This document shows, in pieces, positions 24,058-52,000 of a DNA stretch of 64,000 bases. This DNA comes from Cyanophora paradoxa CCMP329 (Eukaryota; Plantae; Glaucophyta). Under the pieces are notes generated by a model. That model was not told the DNA's origin. It saw only the letters and a list, made by a program, of their open reading frames with translations, and ran no database searches. The stretch covers positions 84,460 through 148,459 of the forward strand of contig QPMI01000199.1 in NCBI GenBank assembly GCA_004431415.1, read 5' to 3'. Positions within the stretch are counted from its first letter, which is position 1. Each line of letters opens with the position of its first letter. Both the position numbers and the translations under genes were made by a program.

Positions 24058-24310
24058 ATGAGCTTCAATTACCCACCCAATCTAGAAACAATTCAAGATG
24101 ATAATGCAAGCAGCACCAAGCATGTGAACTTTGATAATATTAAAGTAAAGGGTTCAGTTTCGATTGAACACAGTTCCGATAATTCATCCAAGACTCAATC
24201 AAGGGAGCATGCTTTATCTGTGAATCAAACTGATCCAAATAAAGAGGATGTCAGTGTTGCTTTTAGTTTGGGTAATGTGAAAGCAAACCAAGTGGCAGAG
24301 ATCAAAGCCA
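24058..24310 (+). pseudogene. 5' fragment of the PLV-A giant fibre gene, interrupted by PLV-B
   Basis: Rejoins in frame with 49064 onward after removing the insert and one TSD (…QVAEIKA|TRRRPRKL…FDSGRLIFNVQDE). Confidence 0.9.
24305..24310 (+). repeat. Left target-site duplication AAGCCA
   Basis: Identical to 49058-49063. Confidence 0.95.
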
Positions 24311-24826
24311 GCTCGCATGCAGGTGAACCCCACTAATTCCCGCCGACCTATTTCAGTGAGCAAATATAAAACATCCTTTATTCTCAGTCACAAATTAATA
24401 AAATCGCTGTAATTCGCACTGAGCCACACTGTCTTTTATAAACCTCTCATGCATCCTTACTGAAACCAATCACGAAAACCTAAATTTCATCTTCTCTCCG
24501 ATCTCTTACCATTCTCAGTAAGCCCTAAACCCGTCCTCCGATCTCTCAGTAAGGCACAGTAAGACCCCATTATTACGAAATGTTCCCGATCGTTGCCGGA
24601 CTGTTTTCAGTAATCCAAAAAGAAAACACAGGTGAACCCCACCGAGAGAGTACGATGATAAGTACGAGATCGATTGAGTTCGCAAGTTTGTGCTGCCGAA
24701 AATGCCCACCTGCACAAACTTGCGCACCCCATCGACAAAGTACGATGATCGACGAAGTACGACGATAGACCACGATTAATTGCAACTGGAACCACTCGCG
24801 CCCCGCCCACTATGCAAGATACATGC
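24311..24826 (+). repeat. PLV-B left TIR (516 bp)
   Basis: Reverse complement of 48542-49057; no mismatch noticed. Confidence 0.96.
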
Positions 24827-24869
24827 CTTTCTTATGCATGATCTATGTAAAAACAATTATTCCAATGCC

Positions 24870-25133
24870 TCATTCCTCTGCAACTGTATTATACTCGATT
24901 GCTCTTTTCACAGTTCCCCTTTGGAATGCCTGTAATACAATCGCTTCTTTTGTGGTTGGTATCTGAACTCCACCTGAGATGCAAGATTGAATCTCTTTCT
25001 GAACAATCTCATCAATTGCAATTCTTGCTCTGTTGTGGGCAGCATTATCAATCCAGTCTTGAACAGATAAAGCGCAATATTCCATTCCCAATTTTTCAGT
25101 ATCTGAGAGAATGACTTGGTAGATATTCGACAT
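24870..25133 (-). CDS. Small phage-like protein (possible fibre chaperone)
   Basis: DWIDNAAHNRARIAIDEIV resembles small proteins found beside C1q fibre genes in marine phages (from recall). Confidence 0.55.
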   Translation of the reverse strand: MSNIYQVILSDTEKLGMEYCALSVQDWIDNAAHNRARIAIDEIVQKEIQSCISGGVQIPTTKEAIVLQAFQRGTVKRAIEYNTVAEE

Positions 25134-25155
25134 TCCTTAATCTACTGCAAGAAAA

Positions 25156-26175
25156 TTAAATGATGCTAATCAATTCACCCGAAAAACCTGTTATACTTGA
25201 ATATGAACCAGAAGAGCTTGTGACAAGTGTAACATATTCATTTTGAGCAAGATTTAGAATGCAAGAGAAACACAATGCTTTATTGGTGTGTGTGCTGCTG
25301 TGGATTTGGGAAATGCTTAAACCCCCAGGATCTGCATCATTCACTTTTATAAATAATTCGATAGTAGCTGATGTGGTCGAAAAAGAGAACACTGAAAATC
25401 GATAATGTCCTGCAACAGGTGCTGTAAATCTTCCTGTTGATGTGCTAAATGCATTGGTATTGTTTACCCGAACTGTTGCCCAGTTTATCAGAGCAGCAGC
25501 AGAAGTAGCAGTGTGAGCATATCCAAGTTGAACTGAAAATCGTGGGTGTGATGTTTTGAGATAGCATCCTTCATTTACTGTCAAACTATTGGCTTCAAGA
25601 GTAGCAACAGTGTTACTATTGCGTTTTAACAAAAAATTGACATCGGCTCCTGTATCAATTTCAGGAGAGACAACCTTAGTAGATGCTGTGATTATTGATT
25701 GTGTGTAGTTAGGAATACTTATACCAGCATTTGCTGTAACCAAACCTGTAAATGTGCTTGTTCCTGTAATGTTTACTTGATTTGCTGTAAGCGTTCCATC
25801 AATCATTGCCCCATCTCCAATATAAGCGCCTCCACTTTTTACTACAAGAGCCGAGTTATTGATGGTGTTGTCAAAAGTAACAATCTTTGGTGTGGTGAAC
25901 CCTCCCACATCATCATAAATTGCTGAATCTGATACAATCTGACCTGATTGAACTTGGTTCTTGTTTGAAACTTTTAAACCTGTGGTTCTCACCCTCCCTC
26001 CATTTCGATCGCATCGAATTTCTTTACATCTTATCACAGAATTTTGAGAGAATGAATCGGCTCCTGTTGTTTCTGTGCAAATAAACCCGGGGGTTGCATC
26101 TGTAACAGCATGGTTAAGTTGATGTATTTTTGGGGCGGCATAACAGAAAACAGGGACAGCTATTTGAGTGGTCAT
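25156..26175 (-). CDS. Fibre-like protein with C-terminal C1q domain
   Basis: HPRFSV...FSTSTGRFTAPVAGHYRF; conserved N-terminal KEIRCDRNGG module. Confidence 0.8.
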   Translation of the reverse strand: MTTQIAVPVFCYAAPKIHQLNHAVTDATPGFICTETTGADSFSQNSVIRCKEIRCDRNGGRVRTTGLKVSNKNQVQSGQIVSDSAIYDDVGGFTTPKIVTFDNTINNSALVVKSGGAYIGDGAMIDGTLTANQVNITGTSTFTGLVTANAGISIPNYTQSIITASTKVVSPEIDTGADVNFLLKRNSNTVATLEANSLTVNEGCYLKTSHPRFSVQLGYAHTATSAAALINWATVRVNNTNAFSTSTGRFTAPVAGHYRFSVFSFSTTSATIELFIKVNDADPGGLSISQIHSSTHTNKALCFSCILNLAQNEYVTLVTSSSGSYSSITGFSGELISII

Positions 26176-26178
26176 ACT

Positions 26179-27267
26179 TTACATTATGTGGATAATATTA
26201 TGATGAATGGACAAGGATACATCCAAAAAGTATCTGATATTGTAGTTTACACCAGCATCTCCTGAATTGACCAGCCTGATCGAATCATTAGCTACAAGGT
26301 TCACAATAATATCAAAACCAACAGTTGCATTTCCTGTTGCATTTTGAGAGTTAGAATTAATTCCGAATGTTGTCCCATTTTTAAGCAAAGAGGTCAAATA
26401 AGTATTGCTTTTAGCACTATTGTAACCAGACGCATGGAAAAATACGAGGTAGTTTCCAGAAACAGGTGCAGTAAAACTCCCTGTTGCAGGATCGAAATTA
26501 TTTCCATGGTTGACTATGACTCCTGTTGATGAGAACAAAGTTGTTCCACTTGCAGCGAAGTTTGTATCTTTTGAAGTATTGGGTTCCTGTTTTGTTGCAA
26601 AGAAACGAGGATGACTACTTAATTTTAGATACTTGTCTGTCGGAAGTGTAAGGAGCTGAACAGTTGTATTATCTGTTTGAGTTGTCTTTCCAAGAGAAAA
26701 CACTGTATTTCCATTTCGTTTGTAGTTCACATTTGCATCTGTCCCATTATCTGTCTCAGGTGTGTTTATTCTTGTATTAGCTGTGATAGTTTGATACTGA
26801 AAGTTGCCTGAGAGACCACCATTAAAGTTCATCAATCCTGTGAATACACTTGTCCCACTCACATTTAATTGGTTTGCTGTAACAGTTCCTGCTACATTGG
26901 CTCCATCTCCAATGTAGGAACCTCCACTTCTGACTACAAGAGCGGAACTAGTGCTTGTGTTACCAAAAGTAACTATCTGTGCTGTGGTAAATCCACCTAC
27001 ATTATCGTATATTGCTGAATCGGGGACTACTTGACCCGCTTGAACCTGATTTTTATTCGAGATAATAATACCTGTGGTTCTTATCTTGCCCCCATTTCGA
27101 TCACATCGAATTTCTTTGACTCTGAGTATGTTGTTCTCTGTGAAAGAGGTATTGCTTGTGGTTTCAGTGCAAATAAAACCGGGTGTTGAATCAAAGACTT
27201 CATGAGAGGTGCTATGTAGTGATTTCGCGGCGAGTTCATAGTTTGGGATCTCTAAAAGAGAGGTCAT
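26179..27267 (-). CDS. Fibre-like protein with C-terminal C1q domain (paralogue)
   Basis: FDPATGSFTAPVSGNYLVFF; same N-terminal module. Confidence 0.8.
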   Translation of the reverse strand: MTSLLEIPNYELAAKSLHSTSHEVFDSTPGFICTETTSNTSFTENNILRVKEIRCDRNGGKIRTTGIIISNKNQVQAGQVVPDSAIYDNVGGFTTAQIVTFGNTSTSSALVVRSGGSYIGDGANVAGTVTANQLNVSGTSVFTGLMNFNGGLSGNFQYQTITANTRINTPETDNGTDANVNYKRNGNTVFSLGKTTQTDNTTVQLLTLPTDKYLKLSSHPRFFATKQEPNTSKDTNFAASGTTLFSSTGVIVNHGNNFDPATGSFTAPVSGNYLVFFHASGYNSAKSNTYLTSLLKNGTTFGINSNSQNATGNATVGFDIIVNLVANDSIRLVNSGDAGVNYNIRYFLDVSLSIHHNIIHIM

Positions 27268-27286
27268 CTTTATAATTACGAAATAG

Positions 27287-28849
27287 TTAAATTGCGACAG
27301 CAATGTAATGGATTGTTACAGTTTTGGCTGTATTGTCCATTGCATATGGATCAGTGAAAAGTTCACATGTGAAATAGTCACTGTAAACATTCAACAGGTT
27401 CACAGTAAATATGACTGGTGTTGTAGCGTTTGCTTGTCCTTCATGCCTTACTGTTGCTGTTACAACAGGAGGAGAAGTGAATGCACTGCTAAAATAGATG
27501 GTTAGATTGAACACATATAAATTATTGTAATTCAATACAGGAGTGGTGTAAGTATATTTTCCTGCTTTTATTTTCCCATTAAAATATGCATTAAGTTGAC
27601 TGGTAAGATCTGCTTCTGTAATACATCTACTTATAGTCGAGCTATCTGTGGGGTTCATAGCATAAAAATTTCTTGCATAAGCATTTCCACGAACAAGTAA
27701 AGTTTGATCAAAGTAATTCTGTGAATTGTGGAAAAACCATGTTTCATCAAACATAGGTCCTGCTGGTTCTACTATCTGACCCGATCCTACATACATTGTG
27801 TTGTTGGCTCTAATTGTGGTTGCTGTGAAGGGATCAAGAGTTGGTCTATTGGTCAAATCATTGTAGTTGCCCGAGAAAATCGCTGGTTTGTTATAAATAT
27901 CTGTATTCCAATCATGAGTGTGTGCAAAATCTGTAATCTCTGCCTTTGTGTGATTGTGAGCAAAATCTGTAATCTCTGCCTTAGTGTGGGTATGACCAAC
28001 ATATGCAACATTTCCAAGATCGGTAATCTGTGACTTTGTATGAGTGTGTGCAAAATCTGTAATCTCAGATTTAAAATGGGTATGAGCAAAATTTGTAATA
28101 TCCGCTCTGGTGTGGGTGTGTGCAAAATCGGTTATCTGTGATTTGGTGTGAGTGTGTGCAAAATCTGTGATTTCTGCCTTTGTGTGGGTATGCGCTCTAT
28201 TATTCAGATCGAGAAAACTACCCGAAAATGCAACAGGGTGTAGATTTGCTGCGGTGGGTTTATTAATGAGATCGTTGTAGTCTCCTGTAAATGAAACAGT
28301 TTTCAGTTCCCCCCTTCCTACATAATCCGAAGGGAGATCAATTTTAATGGGCATTATAGCTGGATCATCTGGGATCACATACTCTCCACCTGTGTGAACC
28401 ACAGGGTATCTTCGAATATACATATTGGATGCACCCATAAGAGGTGCCACAATGGGCACATCGGAGTTAACGAGATTGCAAGTGATGGAAAAAATCGTTT
28501 TGGGGGCAAACAGATTGCAATCAAAGGTCACAGTGGCGGGATCGATAGAAGGATCGACATTTGAACAGATCTGAAACATCCACCCACCCACACAGTTGCA
28601 ATTTAGATTTCGAAAGGCTGTCCCTGCCATTGCATCCACATAGCCAATCCCATTTGCTATGTCATAGATGTGACCAAACTCGTAACCAAAAATGTCATTC
28701 CACAGATTGGAAGCCATAGCTCCCGTCACATACCCTTTCAAATTTACAAGTAGGTCATTGGATTCACTGGGTATATTGCTATGGGTTATGTAAAATTGAT
28801 TATTCAACACAGCATTCCTAATTGTCGTCTCTACTATGGGCTCCGTCAT
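27287..28849 (-). CDS. Fibre protein with phage tail (HTH..ITD) repeats
   Basis: About 8 AHTHTKxxITDF repeats, GDYNDLINKP, C-terminal FSSAFTSPPVV domain. Confidence 0.8.
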   Translation of the reverse strand: MTEPIVETTIRNAVLNNQFYITHSNIPSESNDLLVNLKGYVTGAMASNLWNDIFGYEFGHIYDIANGIGYVDAMAGTAFRNLNCNCVGGWMFQICSNVDPSIDPATVTFDCNLFAPKTIFSITCNLVNSDVPIVAPLMGASNMYIRRYPVVHTGGEYVIPDDPAIMPIKIDLPSDYVGRGELKTVSFTGDYNDLINKPTAANLHPVAFSGSFLDLNNRAHTHTKAEITDFAHTHTKSQITDFAHTHTRADITNFAHTHFKSEITDFAHTHTKSQITDLGNVAYVGHTHTKAEITDFAHNHTKAEITDFAHTHDWNTDIYNKPAIFSGNYNDLTNRPTLDPFTATTIRANNTMYVGSGQIVEPAGPMFDETWFFHNSQNYFDQTLLVRGNAYARNFYAMNPTDSSTISRCITEADLTSQLNAYFNGKIKAGKYTYTTPVLNYNNLYVFNLTIYFSSAFTSPPVVTATVRHEGQANATTPVIFTVNLLNVYSDYFTCELFTDPYAMDNTAKTVTIHYIAVAI

Positions 28850-28887
28850 TATATATCTATTATTGCATACTACAAAAATTAAGGTTG

Positions 28888-31800
28888 TTACATTACATTT
28901 GGAATATGTTCATATATTCTCCCTTCTCGCTGTGCCATTTCCGCCATAAAGTCTCTGTCATTATTCATCGTTTGCTCTGCCAATTCTTGTGCTCGTGATT
29001 TTTTGGGTGCTGCCCTACTTGCTGGTGGTCGGTCAGTCCTTACAACACTAAGAGCGTTTCCATCTGCCGATCTCACCTCTAACCCCACATCTCCTTCGGC
29101 TGTTTGGGTCACATTCAGTTCAGGCGTTGAGTATTTATTTCCTGCACCTGCAATGGTTCTATCTAAGCAAGCACAACAAAGAGCTCGAAATTTGTATGCA
29201 AGCACAAGCCCAAGAGCACCGAGAATCGGCAAGAGAATCATAAGCACTAACGTTCCTGGATTAGTTCCCGGTGCCCCGACTGGATTTGTAGGATTCGTGG
29301 GATTATTAGGTGGTGTGTTTGGATCTGGATTAGTTGTAGGGGGATCTTGTGAATCGGGATCTGGGTTAGGCTGGTTCGGATTTGGATCATTTGGTGGCGG
29401 CTCTGTCGACCCTGCTAATGATGTTGGCGCTGTGTATGCATTCGCAAACACGATGGGAGCCGTCGCTGGATTTCCTGTGGAGGATCCTGAGATTGCACCA
29501 TAGGTATCTGCGAGATACTTGTATAATTCCTGTGTCACAGGTGGATTGCTCACAGATCGACACACCCAAATATTGCATGTGGTATCATAGACTGTGTCCC
29601 TAATAAAGGGAGGTAGAGCCGTCCCACTGAATGACTCAAAGAATCCATTTCGCGATAGCAATCGATGCCCTGCATCACAATTTCCACCCTCAAAGTACTT
29701 CGAAGCCGAAATCGCACCTTGCACATAAATATTGCATGTCGAGTGCAATCCAATGTTATTAAGGTTAGGAGTGTATCTGTCATCGAGCCGGACAGTGCAA
29801 ACCCATGGGGAAGCGGTTTTTATATATTTCTTATCGCCTGCTGTGATCACATCAGTGTTTGGGTGGCTTTCGATTTGGGTAGCAATAGACTCATATTTGT
29901 AAGAGTAATAAACTAAGAGACCATCTGTGGAGGATGTAAAATAAAAGAAGTCTCTCATGAAGTCTGTGGATCCAAAGAAGTCAGCATTGGTCGATGTTAG
30001 GGTGACTTTGGGATAGCTCATGCTGACAGTCTCAGAAGGATATGGAATATAAGAGGTGTAATAGCGATTTAACAGATAATAGTAAAATCCATCTGAGACA
30101 TTCGAATGAGTGGGCAAGGTGACTGTTAAGGTCTTACTGCGATCCTCAAACGTTTTATGTATGACAATGTTGCAAGTATTAATGTATCGAGAATCGAAAA
30201 AGTAATTATTTGTAACTCGATTATCGATCAGAGTAGCATTGGTTCCATTAAATACGAAGTTCTGCCCATTGATCCTCGTAGTATGAATGTCGGTAACATC
30301 GAGAGGATACCTTATTTTTAATCGGTCTTCGGGGTCAAATCGCGGAATAGTTCCTGTTGCCTTCCAACTCACAGTGAAGGGAGGAGAAAGGGAAACTGCT
30401 GGGATAACAGAGAGATTAAATTTCGCAAAATTAAACCCAATAGGATACCCTGATAAAGCATATGTCACTGTTGCATTTCCCACGAGCGTAAAGCCGGTGG
30501 TTGTTATGTTAGTCGCAACAAACGGGGAGTAGCCAGCTGGTGCATTTTGAAGAGAGGTAGATGAGCCATCATTGACCACATACAGATTCGGGTCTGTAAT
30601 TTCAATGGTAGGAGGAGAGACAAATGGAGACTCAAATGTGAAATTAAAACTCGCTGGAACCCCTGCAAGATATCTATATGAGACCGATCCTATTTCGGAT
30701 GCCTGGAATACTTTGCTTCCACTCCGCACTACATTACTTGTGTCTTTCACATTGTGGTATGATATGCTGGGAGTCGGGGAGAGCACCAACGAAATAGCAT
30801 CTGGTAAATCAGACTTTGTTATATACAGCTCTTTAAGATACTCCTTTCTAAAAGGCGCGGTCAGATCTCCAATAGTAGCCGATGAACCCGCGACTACAAT
30901 ATTACAGGTGTTTGCACTCAAAGAATAAACTGTGTTCCACCTTAAAGAGTTCGCGCCAAGATCGAAATTCTGTGAGAAGGGCACGATATTGCTACCTTGT
31001 AAATCTCGGTAAACCTTTACTCTGGGTTCGCTATCGAATTCAGGGGTGATATAATTGATGGTAAGAGTGAAACTTATAGTAGCTTCGGAAGTCAATAAGT
31101 TGTTTCGGATGATAAGTAAATTGTATGTCTCGTTAATGACAAACGAAACCTGAAACCCTGTGGAGGTGACATTGTGAATAAATGCTTTATTCGATTCATT
31201 ATTGTTAGTGATAGGATTATAATAAGTAGTGTGATCCACCAATGAAACAGTGGGTATAGTCGTCTCGAAACCTGTGACACCCAACTGATCCCAAGTGAAT
31301 GTATATGTAGGTTTGCCTACATAAGCGACAAAGACCCCATTCGCGATCTGCTGAGGGTATCCCTCGACAGTGTAGGTCTCAGTTCGCGAAACTGATCGGG
31401 AAAGGTTACTATTAAAGTCAGTGTAGCTGATTAGTGCATTATCACTGGTGAGAATCTGATTGGGTCGGAGTGAGTGATTAAATGGAAGGATTAAATTGGA
31501 GGCAAACATGGAAACTCCATGCAACTCTGACCATCTCAGATTCGATAAACCAACTCGGTATGTGTTGTCAGTCGCGGGGTAAATGTTCCTTTTCGATAGA
31601 ATATGGGCTAAGGTAATTGCAAGCGCTCCATCTGCTGCAAACAGAGCATTAATTTCGGATTGCAAAGCCGCGATTTCAGTAGTGTGGGTCGTGAGGGTTC
31701 CATCCTGGCTTGAATCTTTTGTGTTCTTGTTCCTCTCAAACTCCAAAAACGCCTTTACGATGTCCTTGCCTAAAAGATCGTTTATATTGTCTCTGGTAAT

Positions 31801-32613
31801 GTAAACATGGTCTGTTCTCAGTGCCTGTTTCTCTGTGGTAAAAGCCGGAATTTCCTCTGCAAATGATATAGTCGTTTTATCAAGTGCTAAGGATCTCACA
31901 TTCGGAGCATTGGCGCCAATTATATCCACAACGTTCCCGTTTTCGACAATTTCTAAGGTCGGTTTCGCGGGGTCTAATGTGAAAACGCTCTCTGTTATCT
32001 GGGGAACCGATTCGCTCTTCTGAATCACAAAGGATTCGATGTGTAGGTTACAGGTTGCGACATTGGTGGCGAAGAAAGACTCTGAATTAAATGAGTTTAC
32101 GTTTAGGGTATCCGTAGTGATGTTACTTGCTGTAATATTGCTCGTCGTTAGATTACCTGCTGAGAGATCATGGACGACCTCTACCTTTGTTTTCCGTGTG
32201 GATACTCCCGCTATAAGTGTGCTATTATCCACGATTCTCATAGCTGCATTTTGGAAACCGCTCTCATCTTGAATGAAGAAGTTTAAGCGACCTCTATCGA
32301 ATGCTTTTGGGATGTTCCTACGATTATATCGCACCGTTTTCGGTAGCTGGCGGGTTGCCTGAATGCTGGCGACTCTGTTTCGTTCGTTATCATCAAGTAA
32401 AAAGTCGATTCCAAGTTTATGATCCCCCTTCTCGACGTTCATTAGCTGCAAAGCTGCGGGTCTGCTCGGTGTCCCACTGACTGGATCTTCGCGGTCTGCA
32501 TTGTAGTTTATTCTCAGAGACCCGCGAATTTCAGTGTTTACCTGATCAGTGTCCTCTATCTGAGTGGTCGAATTAATAACTCGTGCATCTGGTCGCGGAT
32601 TCAGGAACGACAT
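28888..32613 (-). CDS. Large fibre/spike protein with C-terminal transmembrane helix
   Basis: N-terminus homologous to PLV-A 24058/49064 (RVASIQATR...FDRGRLNFFIQDE); Pro/Asn linker then LVLMILLPILGALGLVLAY. Confidence 0.78.
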   Translation of the reverse strand: MSFLNPRPDARVINSTTQIEDTDQVNTEIRGSLRINYNADREDPVSGTPSRPAALQLMNVEKGDHKLGIDFLLDDNERNRVASIQATRQLPKTVRYNRRNIPKAFDRGRLNFFIQDESGFQNAAMRIVDNSTLIAGVSTRKTKVEVVHDLSAGNLTTSNITASNITTDTLNVNSFNSESFFATNVATCNLHIESFVIQKSESVPQITESVFTLDPAKPTLEIVENGNVVDIIGANAPNVRSLALDKTTISFAEEIPAFTTEKQALRTDHVYITRDNINDLLGKDIVKAFLEFERNKNTKDSSQDGTLTTHTTEIAALQSEINALFAADGALAITLAHILSKRNIYPATDNTYRVGLSNLRWSELHGVSMFASNLILPFNHSLRPNQILTSDNALISYTDFNSNLSRSVSRTETYTVEGYPQQIANGVFVAYVGKPTYTFTWDQLGVTGFETTIPTVSLVDHTTYYNPITNNNESNKAFIHNVTSTGFQVSFVINETYNLLIIRNNLLTSEATISFTLTINYITPEFDSEPRVKVYRDLQGSNIVPFSQNFDLGANSLRWNTVYSLSANTCNIVVAGSSATIGDLTAPFRKEYLKELYITKSDLPDAISLVLSPTPSISYHNVKDTSNVVRSGSKVFQASEIGSVSYRYLAGVPASFNFTFESPFVSPPTIEITDPNLYVVNDGSSTSLQNAPAGYSPFVATNITTTGFTLVGNATVTYALSGYPIGFNFAKFNLSVIPAVSLSPPFTVSWKATGTIPRFDPEDRLKIRYPLDVTDIHTTRINGQNFVFNGTNATLIDNRVTNNYFFDSRYINTCNIVIHKTFEDRSKTLTVTLPTHSNVSDGFYYYLLNRYYTSYIPYPSETVSMSYPKVTLTSTNADFFGSTDFMRDFFYFTSSTDGLLVYYSYKYESIATQIESHPNTDVITAGDKKYIKTASPWVCTVRLDDRYTPNLNNIGLHSTCNIYVQGAISASKYFEGGNCDAGHRLLSRNGFFESFSGTALPPFIRDTVYDTTCNIWVCRSVSNPPVTQELYKYLADTYGAISGSSTGNPATAPIVFANAYTAPTSLAGSTEPPPNDPNPNQPNPDPDSQDPPTTNPDPNTPPNNPTNPTNPVGAPGTNPGTLVLMILLPILGALGLVLAYKFRALCCACLDRTIAGAGNKYSTPELNVTQTAEGDVGLEVRSADGNALSVVRTDRPPASRAAPKKSRAQELAEQTMNNDRDFMAEMAQREGRIYEHIPNVM

Positions 32614-32656
32614 CCTCTTTATAAACAAAGAAGATATATAAGAAGTATATAAGATA

Positions 32657-34150
32657 ATGAAGACCTGCCTCGCTTTGAGTGGAGGGGGGTCGCGTGGAAT
32701 AATCGAGGCTGCTATACTGGCACAGATTGAAGCCCAAACCGGTAAACGAATCCAACAGCTATTCGACTGCTTTGCGGGAACATCCACAGGTGGATTAATC
32801 GCGCTCCTATTGAATATCAAGGGAACCGATGGCGCCCCTAAATATACTGCCACTGATATTCTTGCGCTCTACAAAGCGAAACTACCGCTGATTTTTGCGA
32901 ATCCACGAGTGCTTACATCGATTGTGCAACGCCCCAAGTATGAAGCAACGAATTTAGAAGCTGTGGCTCTGGAACTCTGCGGCTCAGCGACCATGGCGGA
33001 TCTCTACAAACCCACCATAGTAACTGCGTTCGACACGGTTCAAATGTCCCCCGTTTTTATTTCAAGCAACGATGAAGATATTAATGGGATGCTTGTGCGC
33101 GATGCTGCAAGGGCTACCTCGGCTGCTCCGACCTATTTCGAGCCGAAACAAGTCACAGTCGCCGGAAGAACATATTGTTTAATCGATGGTTGCATGAGCG
33201 GAAATAATTCGCCCGGGGTTTGTGGCTACACATTCGCCCGCACTTTATTCGGAAACTCTTGCGAGGAGGAGCTTATCGTGGTCTCGATTACGGCGGGTCA
33301 CGTCCAAGACTCTGATAAGGCGACATCTGGATATTCGTATGACACTATGAAAAATTGGGGGATCGTGCAATGGATGCTAAGCGCCACAGGATCGCCAATT
33401 CTCAGCATGTTCTTAGAGTCGAGCGATCTAAACGCCCACGTAAAGCTACTGGAACTTTTACCCAGAAACGATGATCAGAATTACGATCGCTACTATAAGC
33501 TGAGCGTTCCTTTACCGAAAGATAAAATGACCCTCGATACTATCACAACGACGCACCTGCAATATTTGGAAACGGAAGCGCTCGCGTTTGTTTCCGCACA
33601 GCAAACGTATTTTAATGCGATGTATTCAGTGCTGACGATGAATATCTCAGAGGGCGATGTTCCCATAATTAATCTGTCCGGGTGCACAGATGTAAGCGCA
33701 CCCCCGGAGTCTAACTGGGTGCCGCTCGATAATAGCGCCTTTATTGCGGAATTTGGCACAGCTTCTGATGCCCGCTGGTCAAATGCTACGGGATGGGTGG
33801 GATTTACAAACCCGCCGCAAGGTAGTAGGTCGGGAGGCAATTATTTACGCATTGATTTTCCGCGTCTGTTTATGCTTTCCTCTATAAAAATGAAGCCGGC
33901 TGCGAATGGAAACTACATTAAAACGTTTGAGATCGATTACCAATTAACTCCGGGAGTGTCGGCACTTGTCACATACACAGAAGCCGGCGCGACGAGAGTG
34001 TTTACAAATGCAAATCAAATAGCCGGAAGTGCTGATCCCGACGAACATTTCTTAGCAAACCCGAGATCTGTGAGAACCCTCGTAATCTGGGTGCTCTCGA
34101 CGAACGTAGCTTCGGCATGCCGAATAGATTTCGAGGGCTACTACGTGTGA
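32657..34150 (+). CDS. Patatin-like phospholipase plus discoidin domain
   Basis: SGGGSRG, GTSTG, ATSAAPTYF, IDG; orthologue of 22458-24014. Confidence 0.92.
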   Translation: MKTCLALSGGGSRGIIEAAILAQIEAQTGKRIQQLFDCFAGTSTGGLIALLLNIKGTDGAPKYTATDILALYKAKLPLIFANPRVLTSIVQRPKYEATNLEAVALELCGSATMADLYKPTIVTAFDTVQMSPVFISSNDEDINGMLVRDAARATSAAPTYFEPKQVTVAGRTYCLIDGCMSGNNSPGVCGYTFARTLFGNSCEEELIVVSITAGHVQDSDKATSGYSYDTMKNWGIVQWMLSATGSPILSMFLESSDLNAHVKLLELLPRNDDQNYDRYYKLSVPLPKDKMTLDTITTTHLQYLETEALAFVSAQQTYFNAMYSVLTMNISEGDVPIINLSGCTDVSAPPESNWVPLDNSAFIAEFGTASDARWSNATGWVGFTNPPQGSRSGGNYLRIDFPRLFMLSSIKMKPAANGNYIKTFEIDYQLTPGVSALVTYTEAGATRVFTNANQIAGSADPDEHFLANPRSVRTLVIWVLSTNVASACRIDFEGYYV

Positions 34151-34157
34151 ACAGCGC

Positions 34158-35003: not shown

Positions 35004-35019
35004 AATCTATTATAGTAAG

Positions 35020-35945: not shown

Positions 35946-35992
35946 GCCCTTTAAATTATTTTCTGATCCCAAAGATAAGAGAAGAAACGCTC

Positions 35993-37306: not shown

Positions 37307-37364
37307 GGAATTCGTGCGATTACCACATTCAGTCTTATTTTTCTATTGTTTTTATAGTGAAAGA

Positions 37365-38231: not shown

Positions 38232-38233
38232 TC

Positions 38234-38917: not shown

Positions 38918-39121
38918 TGGCTGTGAATATCCGCAAGGCAAAGCTGAACCCGCCCGTATTTAGAGCGTGTCTTAATGTGAATGCCCTTGCAAAACGGGCA
39001 CGTCGGCTCCATAAACAGCATTATAAGGTCGACCAACTCATAAGGAAACACACGAGCAAGCAATAGCCTCATTCCCTTTTATTTTCTCACATATTTAATA
39101 CGTTGTCCAATTGTAGGATTG

Positions 39122-39511: not shown

Positions 39512-39627
39512 TTTTTGTGGTGCTGTTATCGCTCCGAGCGCAAAAATTGAAGGTTTCGGTAAAAGGTATATAAGGGCAAGGGAAATAATACAGAGTGACA
39601 AAAAACTATTTTCTCCGGTTATAGTAA

Positions 39628-40041: not shown

Positions 40042-40210
40042 CGAAAAGTACCGTACGATGCAAAAAATGATTAATTTTTTTACCTCCCTTTTTATTCCCC
40101 GTATCGTTCAAAAAAGCACTTAAAGAATTGGCGACAAGGGTATGAAAAGGAGAATTTGGTAGATTGCGCCGAAATTATTTTCTCCGGTTATTTTAAAAGA
40201 ACTAATAGAG

Positions 40211-43200: not shown

Positions 43201-44521
43201 CTGTTTCGCATCTCAAAAGTCGAATTGCTTAGTTATTTGCCCCTATAACAAACAGTGCGCGGAGCTGAGGGACTCTCTCAAAGTCCGCGGAATCGAGAAT
43301 ATTACCGTTCGTACTTTATATAATGTTCTCGGGATCCGTGTCTCAAATGATCAGACCTACGAAGAGGCTATGAGCGAAAAAGACCAGAGGGCGTTCGTCT
43401 CCGAGTTCAGCCACATTATGTTCGACGAGATATTCGCGTATTCCGTAAAAGATCTCGCTAAGATTAAGTCGTTTATTGATCGCTATCCGGATATCAAATA
43501 TTTGGCTAATGGCGATACCTATCAGAACGAACCAATTAATGACGAGCTCTCGGTTTCTGATCGCAAGGGCTACTATAAGCGCGCTGTGCAGAGCATGTTC
43601 CCTAATGTCCTGAGTCTACGCATTAACAAGCGGCACAAGAAGGAGACAGACCGTGAATTAATTCGGGCGATTAAAGAGGATCTCTTCGAAAACGGACTGG
43701 AAGCCGCACAGATCATTTCAAAATACGGTTTGCCGACAATTAATGATCTAAACGCTATTCCCGACGGCTACTTCGGCATCGCTTACAGAAACGAAATGAC
43801 CTTAGCCTATAACAAACTGATGCACGATAGACGGAAAGTAAATATTGCAACCGTAGAGGTCAATGGCATCAAATTCTACAAAGGTTTGGAAGTCGTTTGT
43901 CGCAGGTATCTACGCATTTCGCGGTCTGAGGGTGAGTCTATTAACGCATACACAAATTACACCTATCGGATCACCAAAATCACCAAGCAAATGGTCACAT
44001 TAACTGACGTCTTCGATGGCGTCACGTTCGAGGTTCCGTGCGCGATGTTAGAACATTTTTCTCTCCCTTATGCAGGAACAGGTCATTCAACGCAAGGTCT
44101 CACACTTGATTCGGGCATTGTCATTTGTGAGGCTACGTTCCGCTATACCACTCGCGAATGGTTCTATACCGCGCTCACTCGTAACCGCGATCTGTCTACG
44201 GTGCTGATTTATACACCTATTCACAAGTTCCAAGGAAAGAGCGACTACATCGAATATCTGAAAACGAAGATCCGCGGTTATAAATGCCAGGATCAGCGTG
44301 CCGGTCGCGATTTCAACGAGGCGGATTATATTACGCCGGAGTGGATATTAGAGCGCAAGAAGCAACAGAAGGGCGCCTGTGCGCTCTGTTCCCTTCCGAT
44401 TCCGATTGAGCCGCAAGATCCGAATTACAGGCTCGTCGTGGATCGCATCAATAATAAGCGCCCACACCTTAAAGACAATTGTCAACTCGCGCATCACGGG
44501 TGCAATTGCAGCAAAAAATAA
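40211..44521 (+). CDS. Divergent PolB-like polymerase - SF1 (RecD/Pif1-like) helicase - HNH fusion
   Basis: DMAKCYPS, KHIL..EIGMLGK, IRTDC; PGSGKS, FDE, GDTYQ, HSTQGLTLD, YTALTR; CALC...DRINN..H..DNC. Confidence 0.85.
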   Translation: MPRATNRIANNVRDEIIGYIMQGLSQDLLTEEQAHWAMHNTMNRKPKLQTLIDIRDTLKGIINPRVFRRAERKEKRAARTQVNIEKQKQKEQEAKRLQRFDRKQEQKRAKEAKLQAKQFKGQLKAVEDAIKRTILDPIAQYDPETLATITFKMWAPGSGARSSEVIVIPGIPGTYIKDKTFVTYQNIRETVSVRVLRNFALAKIDRVYGILTAQNRYYSEERDSIFDLLENYDELKIGLGTFGQAYEMFFFKTPPTEEQKKLRKGFDDFGGSVDDAFITVHEVVIYGDEGVEDDGAGAIPGNRYAFLDEELMDSMRCTAIMSKFTDYTLNPNASEFEDVIELPKSSTSNACGYDMIISTWGASIKKCQEAPKPRYTDLTMSYDGLYKFFHGRERTPDDSLALTLRHIEKFCKRIQTGFRVFDVDGKLIYKFAAESINKNINPRNIHFMIHNKHIYIFNDNIKSLEMRMAKMEVEELDNHVPKSNSSLALYKIPTCLTHDIFAHTSKDLLKITQLKLSPDERSFIRILYTGREGLEGLLFTFLKMRYEPAVKLTPSKQIDSITFKANGSMFSIKDPRTTDHFIEQDFETEEYYNKVCEIGKGFRESLLNTTNISHYSPNMREILTHYKRSALSGFFYKPNPKATYTAVDMAKCYPSILKGMQYLPKYNVFDDFVPFKAGSDILEYAIYYVRVVAFEREQATFADDEDVDYDAAMSRKIDGIEIILDRAFSVSGRCYNFITGYTLSMHWADVKDKIEIIAVAEPSHLVPNTSISEMKKVLSSDIQTTDKKHILVKEIGMLGKFQDSQTSTKMFYNRAEAERFAQECGGTVEVFTFNPKNSKRVKTLSEFEGHIYFVKISSHRELVNGFLPIHFHIYDRNRANMFAQYKRLTARGHKVAGIRTDCLYIEGSWTSKKEFDRNAFENMGKFSYIPGKRCPENALRPPRGVTLEFQDPETLINRFSLRDEFNPECFNWVAKLHNRMRVLADMPGSGKSTLGINCFASQKSNCLVICPYNKQCAELRDSLKVRGIENITVRTLYNVLGIRVSNDQTYEEAMSEKDQRAFVSEFSHIMFDEIFAYSVKDLAKIKSFIDRYPDIKYLANGDTYQNEPINDELSVSDRKGYYKRAVQSMFPNVLSLRINKRHKKETDRELIRAIKEDLFENGLEAAQIISKYGLPTINDLNAIPDGYFGIAYRNEMTLAYNKLMHDRRKVNIATVEVNGIKFYKGLEVVCRRYLRISRSEGESINAYTNYTYRITKITKQMVTLTDVFDGVTFEVPCAMLEHFSLPYAGTGHSTQGLTLDSGIVICEATFRYTTREWFYTALTRNRDLSTVLIYTPIHKFQGKSDYIEYLKTKIRGYKCQDQRAGRDFNEADYITPEWILERKKQQKGACALCSLPIPIEPQDPNYRLVVDRINNKRPHLKDNCQLAHHGCNCSKK

Positions 44522-44540
44522 ACAGGTTTAATTAGAAGAA

Positions 44541-45922
44541 ATGTCACGGATCGTTAGAAGGGTAGCGGGAGAGGAGACAGAGACCACCATACTACCTATC
44601 GCGGTTCCTGAAACTGAGCTAATCCCCAAAAAATCACAAAACGCCAAGCAAAATCAAATTTATTAGGAGATGTTCCTTTTAGCATTGCTAACCCGTCCTC
44701 TAAGATCGTGCGACGCATGTATGACCCGAAGACAGGTTTTAAGAACCCATCGGCATTGTACGAAGAGCTGAGAAAAGAGGACAAGAGCCTCACATTGAAA
44801 GAAGTGCAAGATGTCGCAGCGAAACAAGAATTTATGCAGATCAACAAGAAGCCCCCCGCACCGACCCAAACCGCTTTTATTCCCATCACAGCCCCGCCGT
44901 GGTGCTACCAAGCAGATCTCATCTTTTATCTCTCATATGGCAATTATAATTCCGGCTACATTGCAGTCCTTACTCTCATTGAGATGACGAGCCGAAAATC
45001 GTATGCCAAGAAATTAAAGAATAAAGAGGGCGCGAGTGTTGCTACCGCTTTTGCGGAGATGCTTACAGAGCTCCCCGCTCCAATGAAGCGTTTAGAGACA
45101 GATAACGGCTCAGAATTCATCGCAAAGGAGTTTCAGGAGATCGTTAAAAATAACGGAATAGAACACCGCTTTAAACAGGTCGGAGATCACACTTCGCTGG
45201 GAATTATGAATCGCTTTCATTTGACCCTAAAAACGATGATAAACAATTACTGTGTCGCCTATAATACAGTGCGGTTTATGGATAAATTGGACGACTTCGT
45301 TTTCAATTACAATAACACCATTCACAGAACCATAGGAATGAAACCGGGGGATGTAAAGCTCTCAGATATGGAGCAGATCCGAGCGGCTATTATTTCGAGA
45401 AAGAACACAATCGTAAAGGATATATTCAGCGACTTTAAGCCGGGTCTCCACGTCCGCCTATTATTGCCGAGATCGAAGTTCGATAAAGGCGCGACCCAAA
45501 GGTATAGCAGAGAGGTCTACAAAATAGTGGGAAGGAGGGGAAACGCAATAGAGGTGCAAGATGCAGCCGGATACCTCATGCCGAAGCTATTTAAGCCGCA
45601 CGAATTGCAGATTATTACAGAGGTCGAGGCAGTGGTCGAGCCCGCAGAAAATGCAATTAAAGCAGCCGAGATAGAGGCAGCCTCTATTCGGCAGGTTCAA
45701 AAAGAAGGCATAGATGTCGCCGCAAGTGTTCCGAAAGGCGATCTATTGGAAGATCGCGCGGAGAAGACTAAGAGGGCGCTTAGAGAGCTCGCGAAATTAA
45801 CGATTGCCGGCACTGAGAAGCTCTCAGAGGTAAACAGTCAGCGGTGGTATAAATCATTCAAGAATCAGAGCGCAAGCTATACAGCCCCTACTACGCGCAT
45901 TCTTCGGTCATCTCGTTCATAA
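44541..45922 (+). CDS. rve integrase (DD35N); frameshift near 44625
   Basis: YQADL, ETDNGSEF, LGIMNRFH, YNNTIHRTIGMKP; the N-terminus MSRIVRR at 44541 matches the PLV-A integrase. Confidence 0.9.
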
Positions 45923-45961
45923 CAAACCCCGAAATTATTTTCTCCGGTAAATATAAAAGAG

Positions 45962-46276
45962 ATGGAGGGTGAAAAGCATTATGTTGATATTCCCTATGAT
46001 AAAAAGAACGTTGCGAAATCCCTCGGTGGAAAGTGGGATCCCGAGAATTCTTGCTGGTATGTGACACAGAAAGATCACCCCCTATGCTCTCAGTTCAAGA
46101 CTTTAAGCTATGAGCAAGTGTATCAAAGAAACGTGAAGGTTTATCTCGATATTCCTTATGAATTTAAGGATCAAGCGAAGGCTGAGAAAGCCCGCTGGGA
46201 TCCCGTTATGAAATCCTGGTATGTCATGGGTCTCGATCACCCGCTAATGGGCAAGTTTCCGATCAAGGAGCATTAA
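45962..46276 (+). CDS. Tandem DUF5710-like protein
   Basis: Two copies of Y.DIPY..K..AK....WDP....WYV. Confidence 0.8.
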   Translation: MEGEKHYVDIPYDKKNVAKSLGGKWDPENSCWYVTQKDHPLCSQFKTLSYEQVYQRNVKVYLDIPYEFKDQAKAEKARWDPVMKSWYVMGLDHPLMGKFPIKEH

Positions 46277-46301
46277 ATATATCTGTCGTTTTTTTCATTT
46301 T

Positions 46302-46694
46302 TTATGAAATTGGGAACCTTTGCTCGACCTGTAAGTCCCACTTTCGCACTTTCAGCCTTTCCTGTATGAGATCGTTAATGTCCTGTGCTATACCCATTGT
46401 CTTCGCTTCGGCATTTGAGCCGCATGTAAAGATATCGATCGCTAATAGCCCCTGGTCGCTATAAGAGTGAGCTGTGGCATGCGACTCATCTAATAGAAAG
46501 CCAATCGCGAAACCGGGAGGGGAATTAGAGCCATCGAAAATGCATGTGTGCTGGTGCACGATGCGCATATTGCGATCTGTGATATATTGCGATAGGTTCG
46601 CTGTGATCCACTCGGCGCATGCCTCCGGGGACTCAGTAAACGGCTCGGTTATATAGTCGAGCATAACGTGGTAGCCGCGGTATCGGGAATCCAT
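46302..46694 (-). CDS. S-adenosylmethionine decarboxylase (SpeD/SpeH-like proenzyme)
   Basis: GYHVMLD, PPG, LLDESHATAHSY, AIDIFTCG. Confidence 0.9.
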   Translation of the reverse strand: MDSRYRGYHVMLDYITEPFTESPEACAEWITANLSQYITDRNMRIVHQHTCIFDGSNSPPGFAIGFLLDESHATAHSYSDQGLLAIDIFTCGSNAEAKTMGIAQDINDLIQERLKVRKWDLQVEQRFPIS

Positions 46695-47240
46695 TATTAT
46701 TTAAGTCGATATTTTTGTGAGCTATGTGGTTTCGTAGCCGCCAAATCGCGCCCTTTGCGAATTAGACCGCGCCACTTCGTAATAGTGTAGAACTACTCTA
46801 TACGCGCACGGATGCAAAGTATGACTAGTGGAGCCTTCCGGGAACGCGCGCCGGCGCTCAGAATGTAGCGCATACCTCGGTTTTCGGGCACTTGTGCAGA
46901 AATCGAGGTCGCTCTTCGCTCCACGGTGGGCTAAGCTAGTCAAAGCATAACCATCATGCCCGGAAGCAAGTTACGAGCACGTAGCAATTGAGAGCGCGCC
47001 GAGATCGGCTTTCTGTCCAAAGTTATGCGGGGAAAACGGAAGGGGGGGTCTCCGCGAAGTCGCGATCGCCGGTGTTATCAAGTCGGGACTCGGGACTCGG
47101 GACTCGGGACTTGAAAATTGCAACCGGCAACAGTGGCAAGTCGGTCACTGAGTCAGTCACAGGTCAGTTATATACATATATATATATATATATATGCCAC
47201 GTCATCAATTGCTGAGCACACTACCCGGCTATCGGGTATA

Positions 47241-47480
47241 CTATCCGGCGGTACTATCGCCCCGAGGGCATACTATCCGGCGATACTATCGCCCCGAGGT
47301 CATTCTATCCGGCGGTACTATCGCCCCGAGGGCATACTATCCGGCGATACTATCGCCCCGAGGTCATACTATCCGGCGATACTATCGCCCCGAGGTCATA
47401 CTATCCGGCGATACTATCGCCCCGAGGTCATACTATCCGACGATACTATCGCCCCGGGTAATTCTATCCGGCGATCCTAT
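47241..47480 (+). repeat. 32-bp tandem repeat, ~7.5 copies, palindromic core GCGATACTATCGC
   Basis: CTATCCGGCGATACTATCGCCCCGAGGTCATA at 32-bp periodicity. Confidence 0.95.
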
Positions 47481-47699: not shown

Positions 47700-48491
47700 T
47701 TATTTTTCAACAAGTTCATAGTTAGTCATTATGATATGGTTCCTTTTTCGTTTTGTTATACCATACACTTTGCCATACGTATGGCGAATATAGGGTTTAA
47801 ATAGGAGTTTCATTAAAAGAGCATCATTTACAACCATCATAATTTTGCATTTCGCTGTCTTAAATAGGTCTTCCAAATCCAAAAAGAAGGTTTCTAAATC
47901 GAATTCTACATTTTCGTAAAAGTCATTATTGCTGTTCACGTATGGAGGATCGAGAAATATAAAAGCCGCTTCGTCATCTCTATATTTCGCTAAGATATCG
48001 CGAAAATCTCCATGAGATAGGTTGGCTTCTTTTATAAAATCATCGTATGGTATCTTCTTTTTAAGAGTTGTATATGGACTTACCTTCACATTTCGTTTTT
48101 TAAAATCACGGAGCGTTTTAACATTTAGAATACTGTTTTTAAGAAGATAGAAATGATGTGCTAAGTAATCATGTTGTAGAAACTTCTTATAGACTTCTTT
48201 ATGCTCTTCTATATTGCTTACTGCTTCGAACTGTTTTAGACTCTCTAAGAGTTTAACTTTGTTGTTTGGGTCTTTCATTGTATTCAAAAAAAGGGTATGG
48301 GTTTCGTCGTTATCATTCATATAATAATCAAACCGGTCTTTATGCTTTTCCCAAAGATAGAAACTACAAGCACCTGAACCACAAAACGGTTCTATAACTT
48401 TATTAATTCCTTCTAAATCGATATATGGATAGATCGTTTCCATTTCATTATACTTGTTGCCGGTATATTTATGGTAAAAGTGAGTCTTCAT
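47700..48491 (-). CDS. Dam-like (D12 class) N6-adenine DNA methyltransferase
   Basis: YTGNK, EPFCGSGA, ND, FLDPPY. Confidence 0.9.
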   Translation of the reverse strand: MKTHFYHKYTGNKYNEMETIYPYIDLEGINKVIEPFCGSGACSFYLWEKHKDRFDYYMNDNDETHTLFLNTMKDPNNKVKLLESLKQFEAVSNIEEHKEVYKKFLQHDYLAHHFYLLKNSILNVKTLRDFKKRNVKVSPYTTLKKKIPYDDFIKEANLSHGDFRDILAKYRDDEAAFIFLDPPYVNSNNDFYENVEFDLETFFLDLEDLFKTAKCKIMMVVNDALLMKLLFKPYIRHTYGKVYGITKRKRNHIIMTNYELVEK

Positions 48492-48541
48492 TTATTATAG
48501 GAAGAGAAAAACAATTTATATATGTATCTCGCATGTTGTTT

Positions 48542-49057
48542 GCATGTATCTTGCATAGTGGGCGGGGCGCGAGTGGTTCCAGTTGCAATTAATCGTGGTC
48601 TATCGTCGTACTTCGTCGATCATCGTACTTTGTCGATGGGGTGCGCAAGTTTGTGCAGGTGGGCATTTTCGGCAGCACAAACTTGCGAACTCAATCGATC
48701 TCGTACTTATCATCGTACTCTCTCGGTGGGGTTCACCTGTGTTTTCTTTTTGGATTACTGAAAACAGTCCGGCAACGATCGGGAACATTTCGTAATAATG
48801 GGGTCTTACTGTGCCTTACTGAGAGATCGGAGGACGGGTTTAGGGCTTACTGAGAATGGTAAGAGATCGGAGAGAAGATGAAATTTAGGTTTTCGTGATT
48901 GGTTTCAGTAAGGATGCATGAGAGGTTTATAAAAGACAGTGTGGCTCAGTGCGAATTACAGCGATTTTATTAATTTGTGACTGAGAATAAAGGATGTTTT
49001 ATATTTGCTCACTGAAATAGGTCGGCGGGAATTAGTGGGGTTCACCTGCATGCGAGC
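48542..49057 (-). repeat. PLV-B right TIR
   Basis: Inverted copy of 24311-24826. Confidence 0.96.
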
Positions 49058-49063
49058 AAGCCA
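49058..49063 (+). repeat. Right target-site duplication AAGCCA
   Basis: Identical to 24305-24310. Confidence 0.95.
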
Positions 49064-52000
49064 CCAGAAGGAGACCTAGGAAACTCAAAACCAGTGGCAC
49101 TCATCCAGATATACCTTCTAGGTTTGATAGTGGTCGATTGATTTTCAATGTTCAAGATGAGCAGGGCAAACAGAACACAGCTTTGCGAATTTACAATGAG
49201 GGCAGCACTGCAAAAGCAGAGGTCCCCCAAGTATTGCAAGTGGGTCCCATTGCCAATACAAATCAGGTCTCCTACACAAATGATGTCTACCCCAAGGATA
49301 TTACATATGACTTTGCGAGGAATGAGCCTTTTGGGTTCTTTACTCCAAAAGATGTCCATCAAAAAAAGCCATCAATTACAATCAACAGTAGCCCCAGTCA
49401 ACCAGTAGCAATCCATTTACATCCTGATCTTGTTGAAATGGATAGGCACCTTTTGCCTTTGTATAGCAATGTGAAAGACCTTGGAATTCGAACCAGGCAA
49501 TGGCGAAATATCCATGGCAGCAATGTGTATGCAAATGGTGAGAAGCTTGTAAGTGAGAAGACCATAAGAGAGATCTTTGAGTATTATGGACCTGTCCCAG
49601 TTCCCTTCCCTCTTCCATGGGATCCACCGGATTTAACACCGAAAAAGCAGCCTGGAAGAGAATACACAGCAACTGAAGATGTAGCCTTTGGGCAGCATAT
49701 TGTTAGTTGGGAGCAAGTTCGCAATAAACCTATAATTGAACCAAGAAAGCAAATAGATGAGCAGTATTTACCTCCTGAAGTCGACATATTAGAGCTTGAT
49801 GAATATCAATTCGTTCCAGATAAGGAGGAGTATTTACCAGATGGTTTTGACCCACAAGAATATGAATATGATCAGTTTGACCCCAATGAGGAGGAGATAC
49901 TACCAGATGGCTTAGATCCACAAGAGTTTGAGTATGAGCAGAACTATGAACCTGATGAGGAGTATTTGCCAGATGGTCATGATCCACCAGCTGTTGACTA
50001 TGAGCAACCTTATGAACCCCATGAGGAACTATTACCAGATGGATTTCGACCTGAGATCTGGGAGTTCTTTCCTGATTATGAACAAATTAATAATAAACCT
50101 GCAAAGTATCCCCCAGAGGATCACAATCATGATTGGGATGAGATCTTAGGCAAACCTCAAAAGTATCCACCAGAGGACCACAGGCATGATTGGGGAGAAA
50201 TTGATGGAATACCAGAAGAATTTCCACCAATCAAACATGAACACACTTGGGATGAGATTAATGACCAACCAGAATTCGCAAAGGTAGAGCCTCTTGATAA
50301 CTTGGGGGTTTCTCTTTATCAGACTTGTAATGTCCCAGAAAGAATCTTTTTGAATGAACACTATGTACATGTGAATGGGACACTTGCAAATTCAGCTATG
50401 AGAGGACCACTTCATATTAGGACACTACCAGGCTCTTATAATCCACCACCTGAACCAGGAGCGACCATACCAAATATCTTTGTGTCAAGCTACATGGAGG
50501 CTGACATTCCCACAGATACATTCAGAGTCCCAACAGACCCAGCAACCTACCAAAACTTTAACTCTGCTATACAGGTTCATGTTGCAGATGTAAGCAGTTT
50601 AGATGGCTCAAGACCAATGATAGTTTTCAGTCGAGATAAATATTCCTACATTCCCATAGTGGGAACTGCAAATGATAACTATGGGAGGGCAGAGCTTGCA
50701 TGGATCAAAACGAATTATGGTGGGGTTCTTGAAGCCAATCAAAGAATGGCTGCAAAAAACATACACAATGAGAGCATTTCGAGAGTAGTCACAGAGGATT
50801 ACCTTACTGCAGTAATCCTTGTTAATTTTGTAACCCTTGCTATGCTTGATCAATTTATTACAGAAGCTGAACTTGCAGCAGAACTATCCAATTATCTCCC
50901 TCTTGTGGGTGGGACAATCACAGGAAACCTCACAGTTAATAGTAATATTTACAGCAGCAATATAGAGACCAGCAACCTAAAAGTAAATGGAATCCTCACA
51001 ATTGGCTCTTGCAATTTCAATACCATGAATCAGGTTTACGAAGAATGGTATGATGTCCCACCAAGCTTTGATCCAGCATCAAATATCTCGAACTGCATTT
51101 TTGCTTGGAAGGCATCAGGAGTACCAGGTCAATCAGCAATGTATACAACTATAGTAAGCAGAGTCCCGAATTCAGTTGTTCCAGACTTGTTTATCTCCGG
51201 AGCCAGTTCCTATTACACCAATCCCGAAATCAACAACCAAGTTAGTGTTTCAAGCCCAACAGGCACTTTTTATGCATATACCTCTGCTACAAGAACTATT
51301 GATTTCTCAAATGGGCTTACATTTTTCTTTGTGGGAAAATATCATCCAACTGCCTCTTCTATGCAAGTTCACTTGAGACTTTACAGAAGCGCCTTTCCAT
51401 CACGATATTGTTATTATGGGGCAACATCTTCTACTGCTATTGGAATGAACCAGTTCACTATTAATGGAGCATCCCAAACCCGCCCAGTTATAACAGTTCC
51501 TTCTTTAATAAATACATGGTATTACACTGACCAAACAATTACTTCCAGCAGCTACACAGTCGGGTTAAATGGAGTAGATATTGAAACACTTGTAGGAACA
51601 AATTATCTACCAGATAATACTGTCAATCATTTCGGATTTGGTAATATTGTGAATGGTGGTATTTCCGAGTTGATTGTTTTCAATAGGGCTTTGACAACTT
51701 CTGAAAAGAATGCTGTGAGGTATTACATTCAACAAAAATAAGGATTCACTCATACCCAGACTCTGAATATTTACAGAGGATTAAAAATAACCTCACCTGA
51801 TACTGTAATAGATTACCTTACAGTTACAAGCAATGCAAATTTACCACATCATCCAACCTCTAATGTGGTTCAAGGTTGGATTCAAAATCACACTCACACA
51901 AAAGCCCAGATTACAGATTTTGACCACACCCATGCCTGGTCGAATATTGTAGATAAACCTTTGACCTTCCCTCCCAGTTCTCACAATCACTTATGGGAGC

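Follow-up and report, generated by a model that had tools for sequence, protein, structure and literature searches.

A stretch of 64,000 nucleotides from the glaucophyte Cyanophora paradoxa CCMP329 (contig QPMI01000199.1, positions 84,460 to 148,459; hereafter the window) was found to hold two nested elements bearing terminal inverted repeats (TIRs), both of which resemble polinton-like viruses (PLVs). The outer element, PLV-A, spans 6466-58310 (27.1 kb without the inner element; 39% GC, CpG-poor), and the inner element, PLV-B, spans 24311-49057 (24,747 bp, 44% GC) in the orientation opposite to PLV-A, where it truncates a fibre-like gene of its host element. The left TIR of PLV-B (24311-24826, plus strand) is complementary to the right TIR (48542-49057, minus strand) at 516 of 516 positions. 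The pair is flanked by copies of the 6-bp target-site duplication (TSD) AAGCCA at 24305-24310 and 49058-49063 (both plus strand), in agreement with the initial annotation of this locus. A 5-bp TSD with AG ends for PLV-B was rejected, as the TIRs do not extend. The interrupted gene consists of a 5' part of 253 nt (24058-24310, plus strand; 84 codons and one base) and a 3' part of 2,678 nt (49064-51741, plus strand), the latter holding the remainder of a domain shared with a PLV-B protein, acidic repeats, tail-fibre repeats and a LamG-like C-terminal domain. These halves are in phase (one plus two bases), and the single open frame to the right of PLV-B is the in-phase one, possessing one stop codon versus 42 and 86 in the other two. 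Excision of PLV-B thus restores one frame, as had been annotated. In its present form the PLV-A frame stops eight codons inside the TIR of PLV-B, leaving a product of 92 aa.

Uninterrupted copies of the PLV-A gene, the search for which had been proposed along with the annotation, exist in three of the four sequencing runs examined. Contigs crossing the site without PLV-B (departing at 24308 and resuming with the letters that follow 49063) were identified in runs X1 (n = 4), X4 (n = 4) and X19 (n = 2), a count made from the 24 of 1,014 loose contig ends listed, among which run X2 does not occur. These sister copies of PLV-A possess two synonymous differences from the window after position 49063. 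The PLV-A and PLV-B families cover 30 of 30 bins in all four runs, with between 2,586 and 7,152 contigs, short and divergent, in each, showing both to be multicopy; contig depth was rejected as a measure of copy number. No contig bridging the junction between the two elements is present among the same 24 loose ends, and the junction therefore rests on the assembly and on the exact TSD. An assembly chimera, in which the long-read assembler placed a copy of PLV-B inside a copy of PLV-A, would agree with this unbridged junction, with the multicopy state of both families and with apparent single-base frameshifts in the PLV-A integrase (8583-8632), the PLV-A primase-helicase (14986-15122) and a putative penton of PLV-B (35020-35945), the two in PLV-A being located at homopolymers. 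However, such a chimera is not expected to yield an exact 6-bp duplication, two complete and identical TIR ends and halves that are in phase, and no sequence is shared at the joints, making this explanation very hard to credit. The frameshifts themselves may be long-read errors, and Bellas et al. (2023, PMC10120064) have warned of artefactual frameshifts of this kind. At the frameshift of the primase-helicase, the corresponding contig is one base longer in four of four runs, a difference compatible with a private mutation as well as with a long-read error. That PLV-A was already dead at the time of insertion was treated as unproven, the frameshifts being possibly such errors.

The interrupted gene possesses features expected of a fibre gene. 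Its product has acidic repeats, matches to PHROG tail-fibre families (E = 6.5e-7) and a LamG-like, lectin-like domain (atlas 0.97; Pfam E = 0.027), and a C-terminal S74 chaperone follows in an in-frame continuation (51742-54843, plus strand; 1,033 codons), which also carries tail-fibre repeats. In its combination of a long modular open reading frame (ORF), tail-fibre repeats, a LamG-like domain and a downstream S74 domain, it resembles described PLV fibres, namely Ltf of Gezel-14T (bioRxiv 10.1101/2022.07.28.501842) and those ending in S74 (PMC12220804). The Ltf protein has been detected in virions of Gezel-14T (bioRxiv 10.1101/2022.07.28.501842), and it has been described that Tetraselmis PLVs have a conserved structural arm that includes a fibre gene. 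The continuation is separated from the interrupted ORF by a single stop codon (51739-51741), has no ATG for 249 codons (the first is codon 250), and an internal duplication is seen here (35% over 423 columns). The two ORFs probably form one S74 fibre of approximately 2,000 aa with a private stop codon or a sequencing error; read-through of the stop may also occur.

Comparison of the PLV-A protein (with X at the break) with the product of PLV-B 28888-32613 (minus strand; 1,241 aa) aligned aa 27-151 of the former with aa 26-159 of the latter (approximately 135 columns, 32% identity, E = 3e-14). Taken alone, each half of the PLV-A protein scored above 2,000 of 2,000 shuffled sequences (73 and 93 versus maxima of 51 and 61). 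The alignment spans just 14% of the PLV-A protein and 11% of that of PLV-B. The shared N-terminal domain, a candidate capsid anchor in the initial annotation, belongs to no named family; its single-sequence fold is of low confidence (pLDDT 33.5) and its atlas matches are unnamed (best 0.92). Both genes lie head-to-head with a patatin gene across an identical gap of 43 nt: in PLV-A a patatin-discoidin gene (22458-24014, minus strand; PF01734 and PF00754), in PLV-B a patatin gene at 32657-34150 (plus strand). The surrounding gene order is likewise shared in opposite orientation, comprising a small-ORF cluster, ATPase, capsid, two putative pentons, patatin and fibre block, with the structural genes being 26-37% identical (capsid 30%, one putative penton 26%, shared fibre domain 32%). 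These similarities make a solid case, at the level of sequence and gene order, for positional orthology between the interrupted gene and PLV-B 28888-32613. Orthology over their whole length was rejected, 86-89% of each protein being unrelated to the other. The initial description of the PLV-B gene as an orthologue is therefore sound with regard to position and a homologous N-terminus, with homology confined to the first 150 or so residues. The structural module running from ATPase through capsid, the two putative pentons and patatin to the fibre block reached both elements by common descent, which is why PLV-B holds a counterpart of the gene it broke.

Beyond the shared region of about 150 aa, the PLV-B protein leads towards its end into a Pro-rich stalk and a predicted transmembrane helix at aa 1121-1139 (window 29197-29253; mean hydropathy of 2.64, versus a best value of 1.89 in the PLV-A protein). 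This large protein closes with a stalk rich in Pro and Asn, the predicted transmembrane helix and a Cys-Cys tail, an ending unusual for the fibre of a capsid virus, and it differs in this from S74-ended PLV fibres, having the predicted membrane helix at its end in place of S74. It has no PHROG match and just a weak match to H-lectin (E = 0.04), and so its designation as a fibre rests on position. The product could be a membrane-anchored surface protein. The proposal that PLV-B supplies a working replacement for the disabled attachment protein found no support, as just some 150 residues match, at about the same 30% as the capsid and a putative penton, the binding parts are unrelated and the PLV-B protein has a predicted transmembrane helix.

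Both elements possess a double jelly-roll major capsid protein (MCP), an A32 packaging ATPase, an integrase and TIRs, with a TSD for PLV-B, which places them among the PLVs; common to both are also patatin and AdoMet decarboxylase genes. The MCP of PLV-B (35993-37306, plus strand) was recognised by Foldseek using a low-confidence model (pLDDT 40), the named top matches being double jelly-roll capsids (best E = 3e-8 among viral structures and 3e-7 in the PDB). By eye, it is near-identical to published C. paradoxa MCPs, differing from one listed sequence at approximately 8 of its first 240 or so residues, and the MCP of PLV-A (19075-20442, minus strand; 30% identical to that of PLV-B) is close to another (PMC10120064). 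The published MCPs that the two match in this comparison by eye were confirmed by HHpred. The A32 ATPases were identified by PF04665 (PLV-B 37365-38231, plus strand, E = 2e-10; PLV-A E = 6e-11). The rve integrase of PLV-B is an uninterrupted ORF (44717-45922, plus strand; PF00665, E = 6e-14), that of PLV-A is a split gene, and the TIR pair of PLV-A (left 6466-6945, plus strand; right, matched part, 57831-58310, minus strand) agrees at 478 of 480 positions. The two putative pentons beside each MCP were judged by position and size, without a Pfam or PHROG match. PLV-A encodes a protein-primed PolB (PF03175, E = 1e-12) as well as a primase-helicase. The replication gene of PLV-B (40211-44521, plus strand; 1,436 aa) has SF1 helicase and endonuclease VII parts, these being the only Pfam matches, with none to PolB; PolB-like motifs that we presume to lie in this protein thus lack Pfam support. 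PLV-B also carries a D12 adenine methylase. No protease family was identified among the 43 window ORFs scanned, which sets the elements apart from Polintons/Mavericks and virophages in the strict sense, where a maturation cysteine protease is expected; no Rfam family was identified in the window.

The gene set agrees with that of the 156 glaucophyte elements tabulated by Bulzu et al. (2025, PMC12220804), among which A32 ATPase occurs in 139, lipase in 89, rve in 85, AdoMet decarboxylase in 66, S74 in 37 and protease in none. Together with the MCP comparison, this gene set marks C. paradoxa as very likely the host. Patatin-discoidin and PTR plus H-lectin genes have been mentioned for C. paradoxa PLVs (PMC10120064, PMC12220804), and adintovirus-like sequences have been noted in this alga, with nothing further in the text available (PMC8502044). 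Scans of IMG/VR and JGI metagenomes using each MCP or their alignment gave no relative. One homologue of the PLV-B MCP was obtained among 7,992 candidates (P0001, 60%), and one match to aa 1-400 of the PLV-B fibre-position protein among 7,378 (P0002), lying outside the shared domain. An exact-sequence look-up of nine window proteins in a protein collection found none present.

The insertion of PLV-B into PLV-A is probably a case of ordinary, untargeted nesting. The hit ORF makes up 10.8% of PLV-A, and all fibre-like genes together 30%. Genes with a PLV-B homologue account for 49% of PLV-A (61% including the in-frame continuation), and consequently about every second insertion would break a gene that PLV-B itself carries. 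It has been reported that the 99.9 Mb genome of C. paradoxa contains 366 MCP loci, with PLVs estimated at 7.32% (Bellas et al. 2023, PMC10120064). Under a model of uniform insertion, this published load puts the expected number of nested PLVs at 13.4 and that of hits in a gene of this size at 1.45 (probability of at least one hit 0.76), whereas the 156 tabulated elements predict 3.0 nested PLVs and 0.33 hits (probability 0.28), these figures being good to an order of magnitude. The neighbourhood is a crowded one, with the long terminal repeat (LTR) of a gypsy-type element in the left TIR of PLV-A and a higher-order satellite at its right end. The codons of PLV-B at the homologous site differ from those of the target, and the sister PLV-A copies vary at two synonymous letters there, which points to no conserved DNA motif as the target; sequence-specific integration was likewise not seen for the endogenous mavirus-like elements (EMALEs) of Cafeteria (PMC8547959). 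Among the three options of the initial annotation, namely interference, complementation or pseudotyping, and chance nesting, the last fits best, with possession of a homologue being nearly automatic and the PLV load making such a hit expected.

Several points weigh against untargeted nesting. The evidence comes from one insertion site, and the cut lies inside the shared domain of approximately 125 codons, which is 1.4% of PLV-A, although this target was chosen post hoc. The chance model also takes insertion as uniform and every PLV as having the same share of fibre DNA as PLV-A. Moreover, preference for viral DNA has a precedent, as 91% of type 1 Ngaro elements occur in EMALEs (PMC8547959). 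A general preference of the PLV-B integrase for resident PLV DNA, in the form of AT-rich islands or chromatin offering a harmless landing ground, with the fibre gene being the largest target in PLV-A, would be in keeping with this bias of Ngaro elements, with the 39% GC of PLV-A inside flanks of 57-58% GC, with the 30% of PLV-A taken up by fibre-like genes and with frequent nesting in Halocafeteria (bioRxiv 10.64898/2026.07.28.741278). Chance alone, however, already predicts 3-13 nests, and one contig of 49-188 kb per run that partly matches the window could represent an insertion in unique host DNA; such a preference is considered unlikely.

Targeting proper, by which PLV-B would seek the fibre gene of PLV-A, disable its attachment protein and have its own protein dock on PLV-A capsids (pseudotyping), draws on the location of the cut within the sole domain common to both proteins, on the positional orthology of the two genes, each separated from patatin by 43 nt, and on the PLV-A-like composition of the distal fibre block of PLV-B, from which fibre DNA may move between the families. 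Against this, the identity of the shared domain (32%) is at the level of the capsid (30%) and one putative penton (26%), 86-89% of each protein is unrelated, and the membrane helix is predicted for PLV-B only. Intact copies of PLV-A remain, so that the knockout of a single copy gains little, and the target DNA is not conserved. Targeting is thus highly improbable. For untargeted nesting, the sequence of events would be that PLV-B arrived after PLV-A and that its own rve integrase made the insertion, at a site presumably not chosen by sequence, amid the repeats that crowd this region of an algal genome rich in PLVs. Loss of the broken PLV-A copy was probably neutral and of little cost, because other copies of PLV-A keep the gene and because repeats and viral genes of C. 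paradoxa have been reported to carry CpG methylation, and methylated genes to be mostly silent (PMC12344493).

Nesting of one PLV in another has been published, and the present pair is a new instance. In Halocafeteria seosinensis, five PLVs and nine virophages were found within other viral elements (bioRxiv 10.64898/2026.07.28.741278); these nests involve another host and other PLV groups, and the available text of that report neither states the genes hit nor gives an enrichment test. Ngaro elements in EMALEs and retrotransposons in cryptophyte PLVs are likewise mobile elements residing in endogenous viruses, whose integrase or fibre genes they can disrupt (PMC8547959, PMC12220804), the fibre genes of cryptophyte PLVs having been hit by retrotransposons (PMC12220804). 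Rescue of such broken genes in trans was discussed as unlikely (PMC8547959, PMC12220804). In those cases the inserters are retrotransposons and the preference of Ngaro was counted, whereas PLV-B is itself a virus related to the element that it entered. No account of the nested pair, of gene maps for the two families or of their CpG contrast was found in the text available for PMC10120064 and PMC12220804, and a literature search did not find the nested pair or the targeting of fibre genes by PLVs described, though supplements may list it. The nest places two PLV families in temporal order and illustrates that no special mechanism is required for an inserter to carry a gene that it breaks in a relative. 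Were targeting true, endogenous viruses of a cultured alga would be seen to interfere directly with one another and would have a means of exchanging host-recognition proteins.

The two elements differ in their CpG content, and PLV-B is a mosaic in this respect. All genes of PLV-A are CpG-poor (observed/expected ratio 0.06-0.53), whereas the core genes of PLV-B (32657-46694) are CpG-rich (approximately 1.17-1.42; core as a whole 1.29). The distal fibre block of PLV-B (24870-28849, minus strand), consisting of an 87-aa ORF, two C1q genes and a gene with PTR and weak H-lectin domains (Pfam), has a ratio of 0.46, which is similar to that of PLV-A (P = 2e-30 versus the core), and a CpG gradient runs along the adjacent gene at 28888-32613. 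The same is seen at synonymous sites, where NCG codons number 30/988 in PLV-A blocks, 22/359 in the distal block of PLV-B, 67/375 in the 28888-32613 gene and 249/777 in the PLV-B core. The distal fibre genes are 33-36% identical at the protein level to this copy of PLV-A and are no closer to it than the core genes are, and this PLV-A copy was therefore not the donor. The simplest reading of this composition is that the distal fibre genes derive from a CpG-poor family, which suggests swapping of fibre blocks between resident PLV families. A broader scheme, in which the PLV-B family preferentially integrates into resident PLVs, often in the fibre block, with nests acting as a platform for swapping attachment modules and the CpG-poor distal genes as the trace of an earlier swap, is decidedly doubtful. 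The CpG mosaic of PLV-B (core 1.29, distal fibre block 0.46) nonetheless offers an inexpensive means of asking whether fibre modules were exchanged among the PLVs of this genome, which number several hundred.

A number of further features were observed in and around the two elements. A 14-nt motif is shared just upstream of the primase gene of PLV-A (16276), the replication gene of PLV-B (40169) and the DUF5710 gene of PLV-B (45929). This motif is a candidate for an early promoter common to the three genes, which a single helper virus might read. The AdoMet decarboxylases of the two elements (46302-46694 and 57219-57617) are 46% identical. A 32-bp tandem repeat of 7.6 copies (47238-47480), located between the AdoMet decarboxylase and methylase genes of PLV-B, is a possible origin or binding array. 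In PLV-A, a 9-mer/35-nt repeat motif of the TIRs (6528-6827 and 57949-58338) recurs internally on both strands at 13455-13573, between the RING and helicase genes.

To the left of PLV-A, a gypsy-type retrotransposon lies on the minus strand at 250-6465 (RVT_1 in the ORF adjacent to the junction). Its LTR begins at 6465 and would have cut the left TIR of PLV-A at 6465/6466, approximately 33 bp from the inferred end of the element; the TSD of PLV-A is not visible because the true left end lies beyond this LTR. A search with the gypsy reverse transcriptase gave a single match, from a plant (42%). The right end of PLV-A probably extends to about 58343, and the remainder of the window (58344-64000) is a higher-order satellite with units of approximately 1.3-1.7 kb, 149-bp subrepeats and a 60-bp repeat in alternate units. 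In the first satellite unit, the 60-bp repeat directly adjoins the right end of PLV-A.

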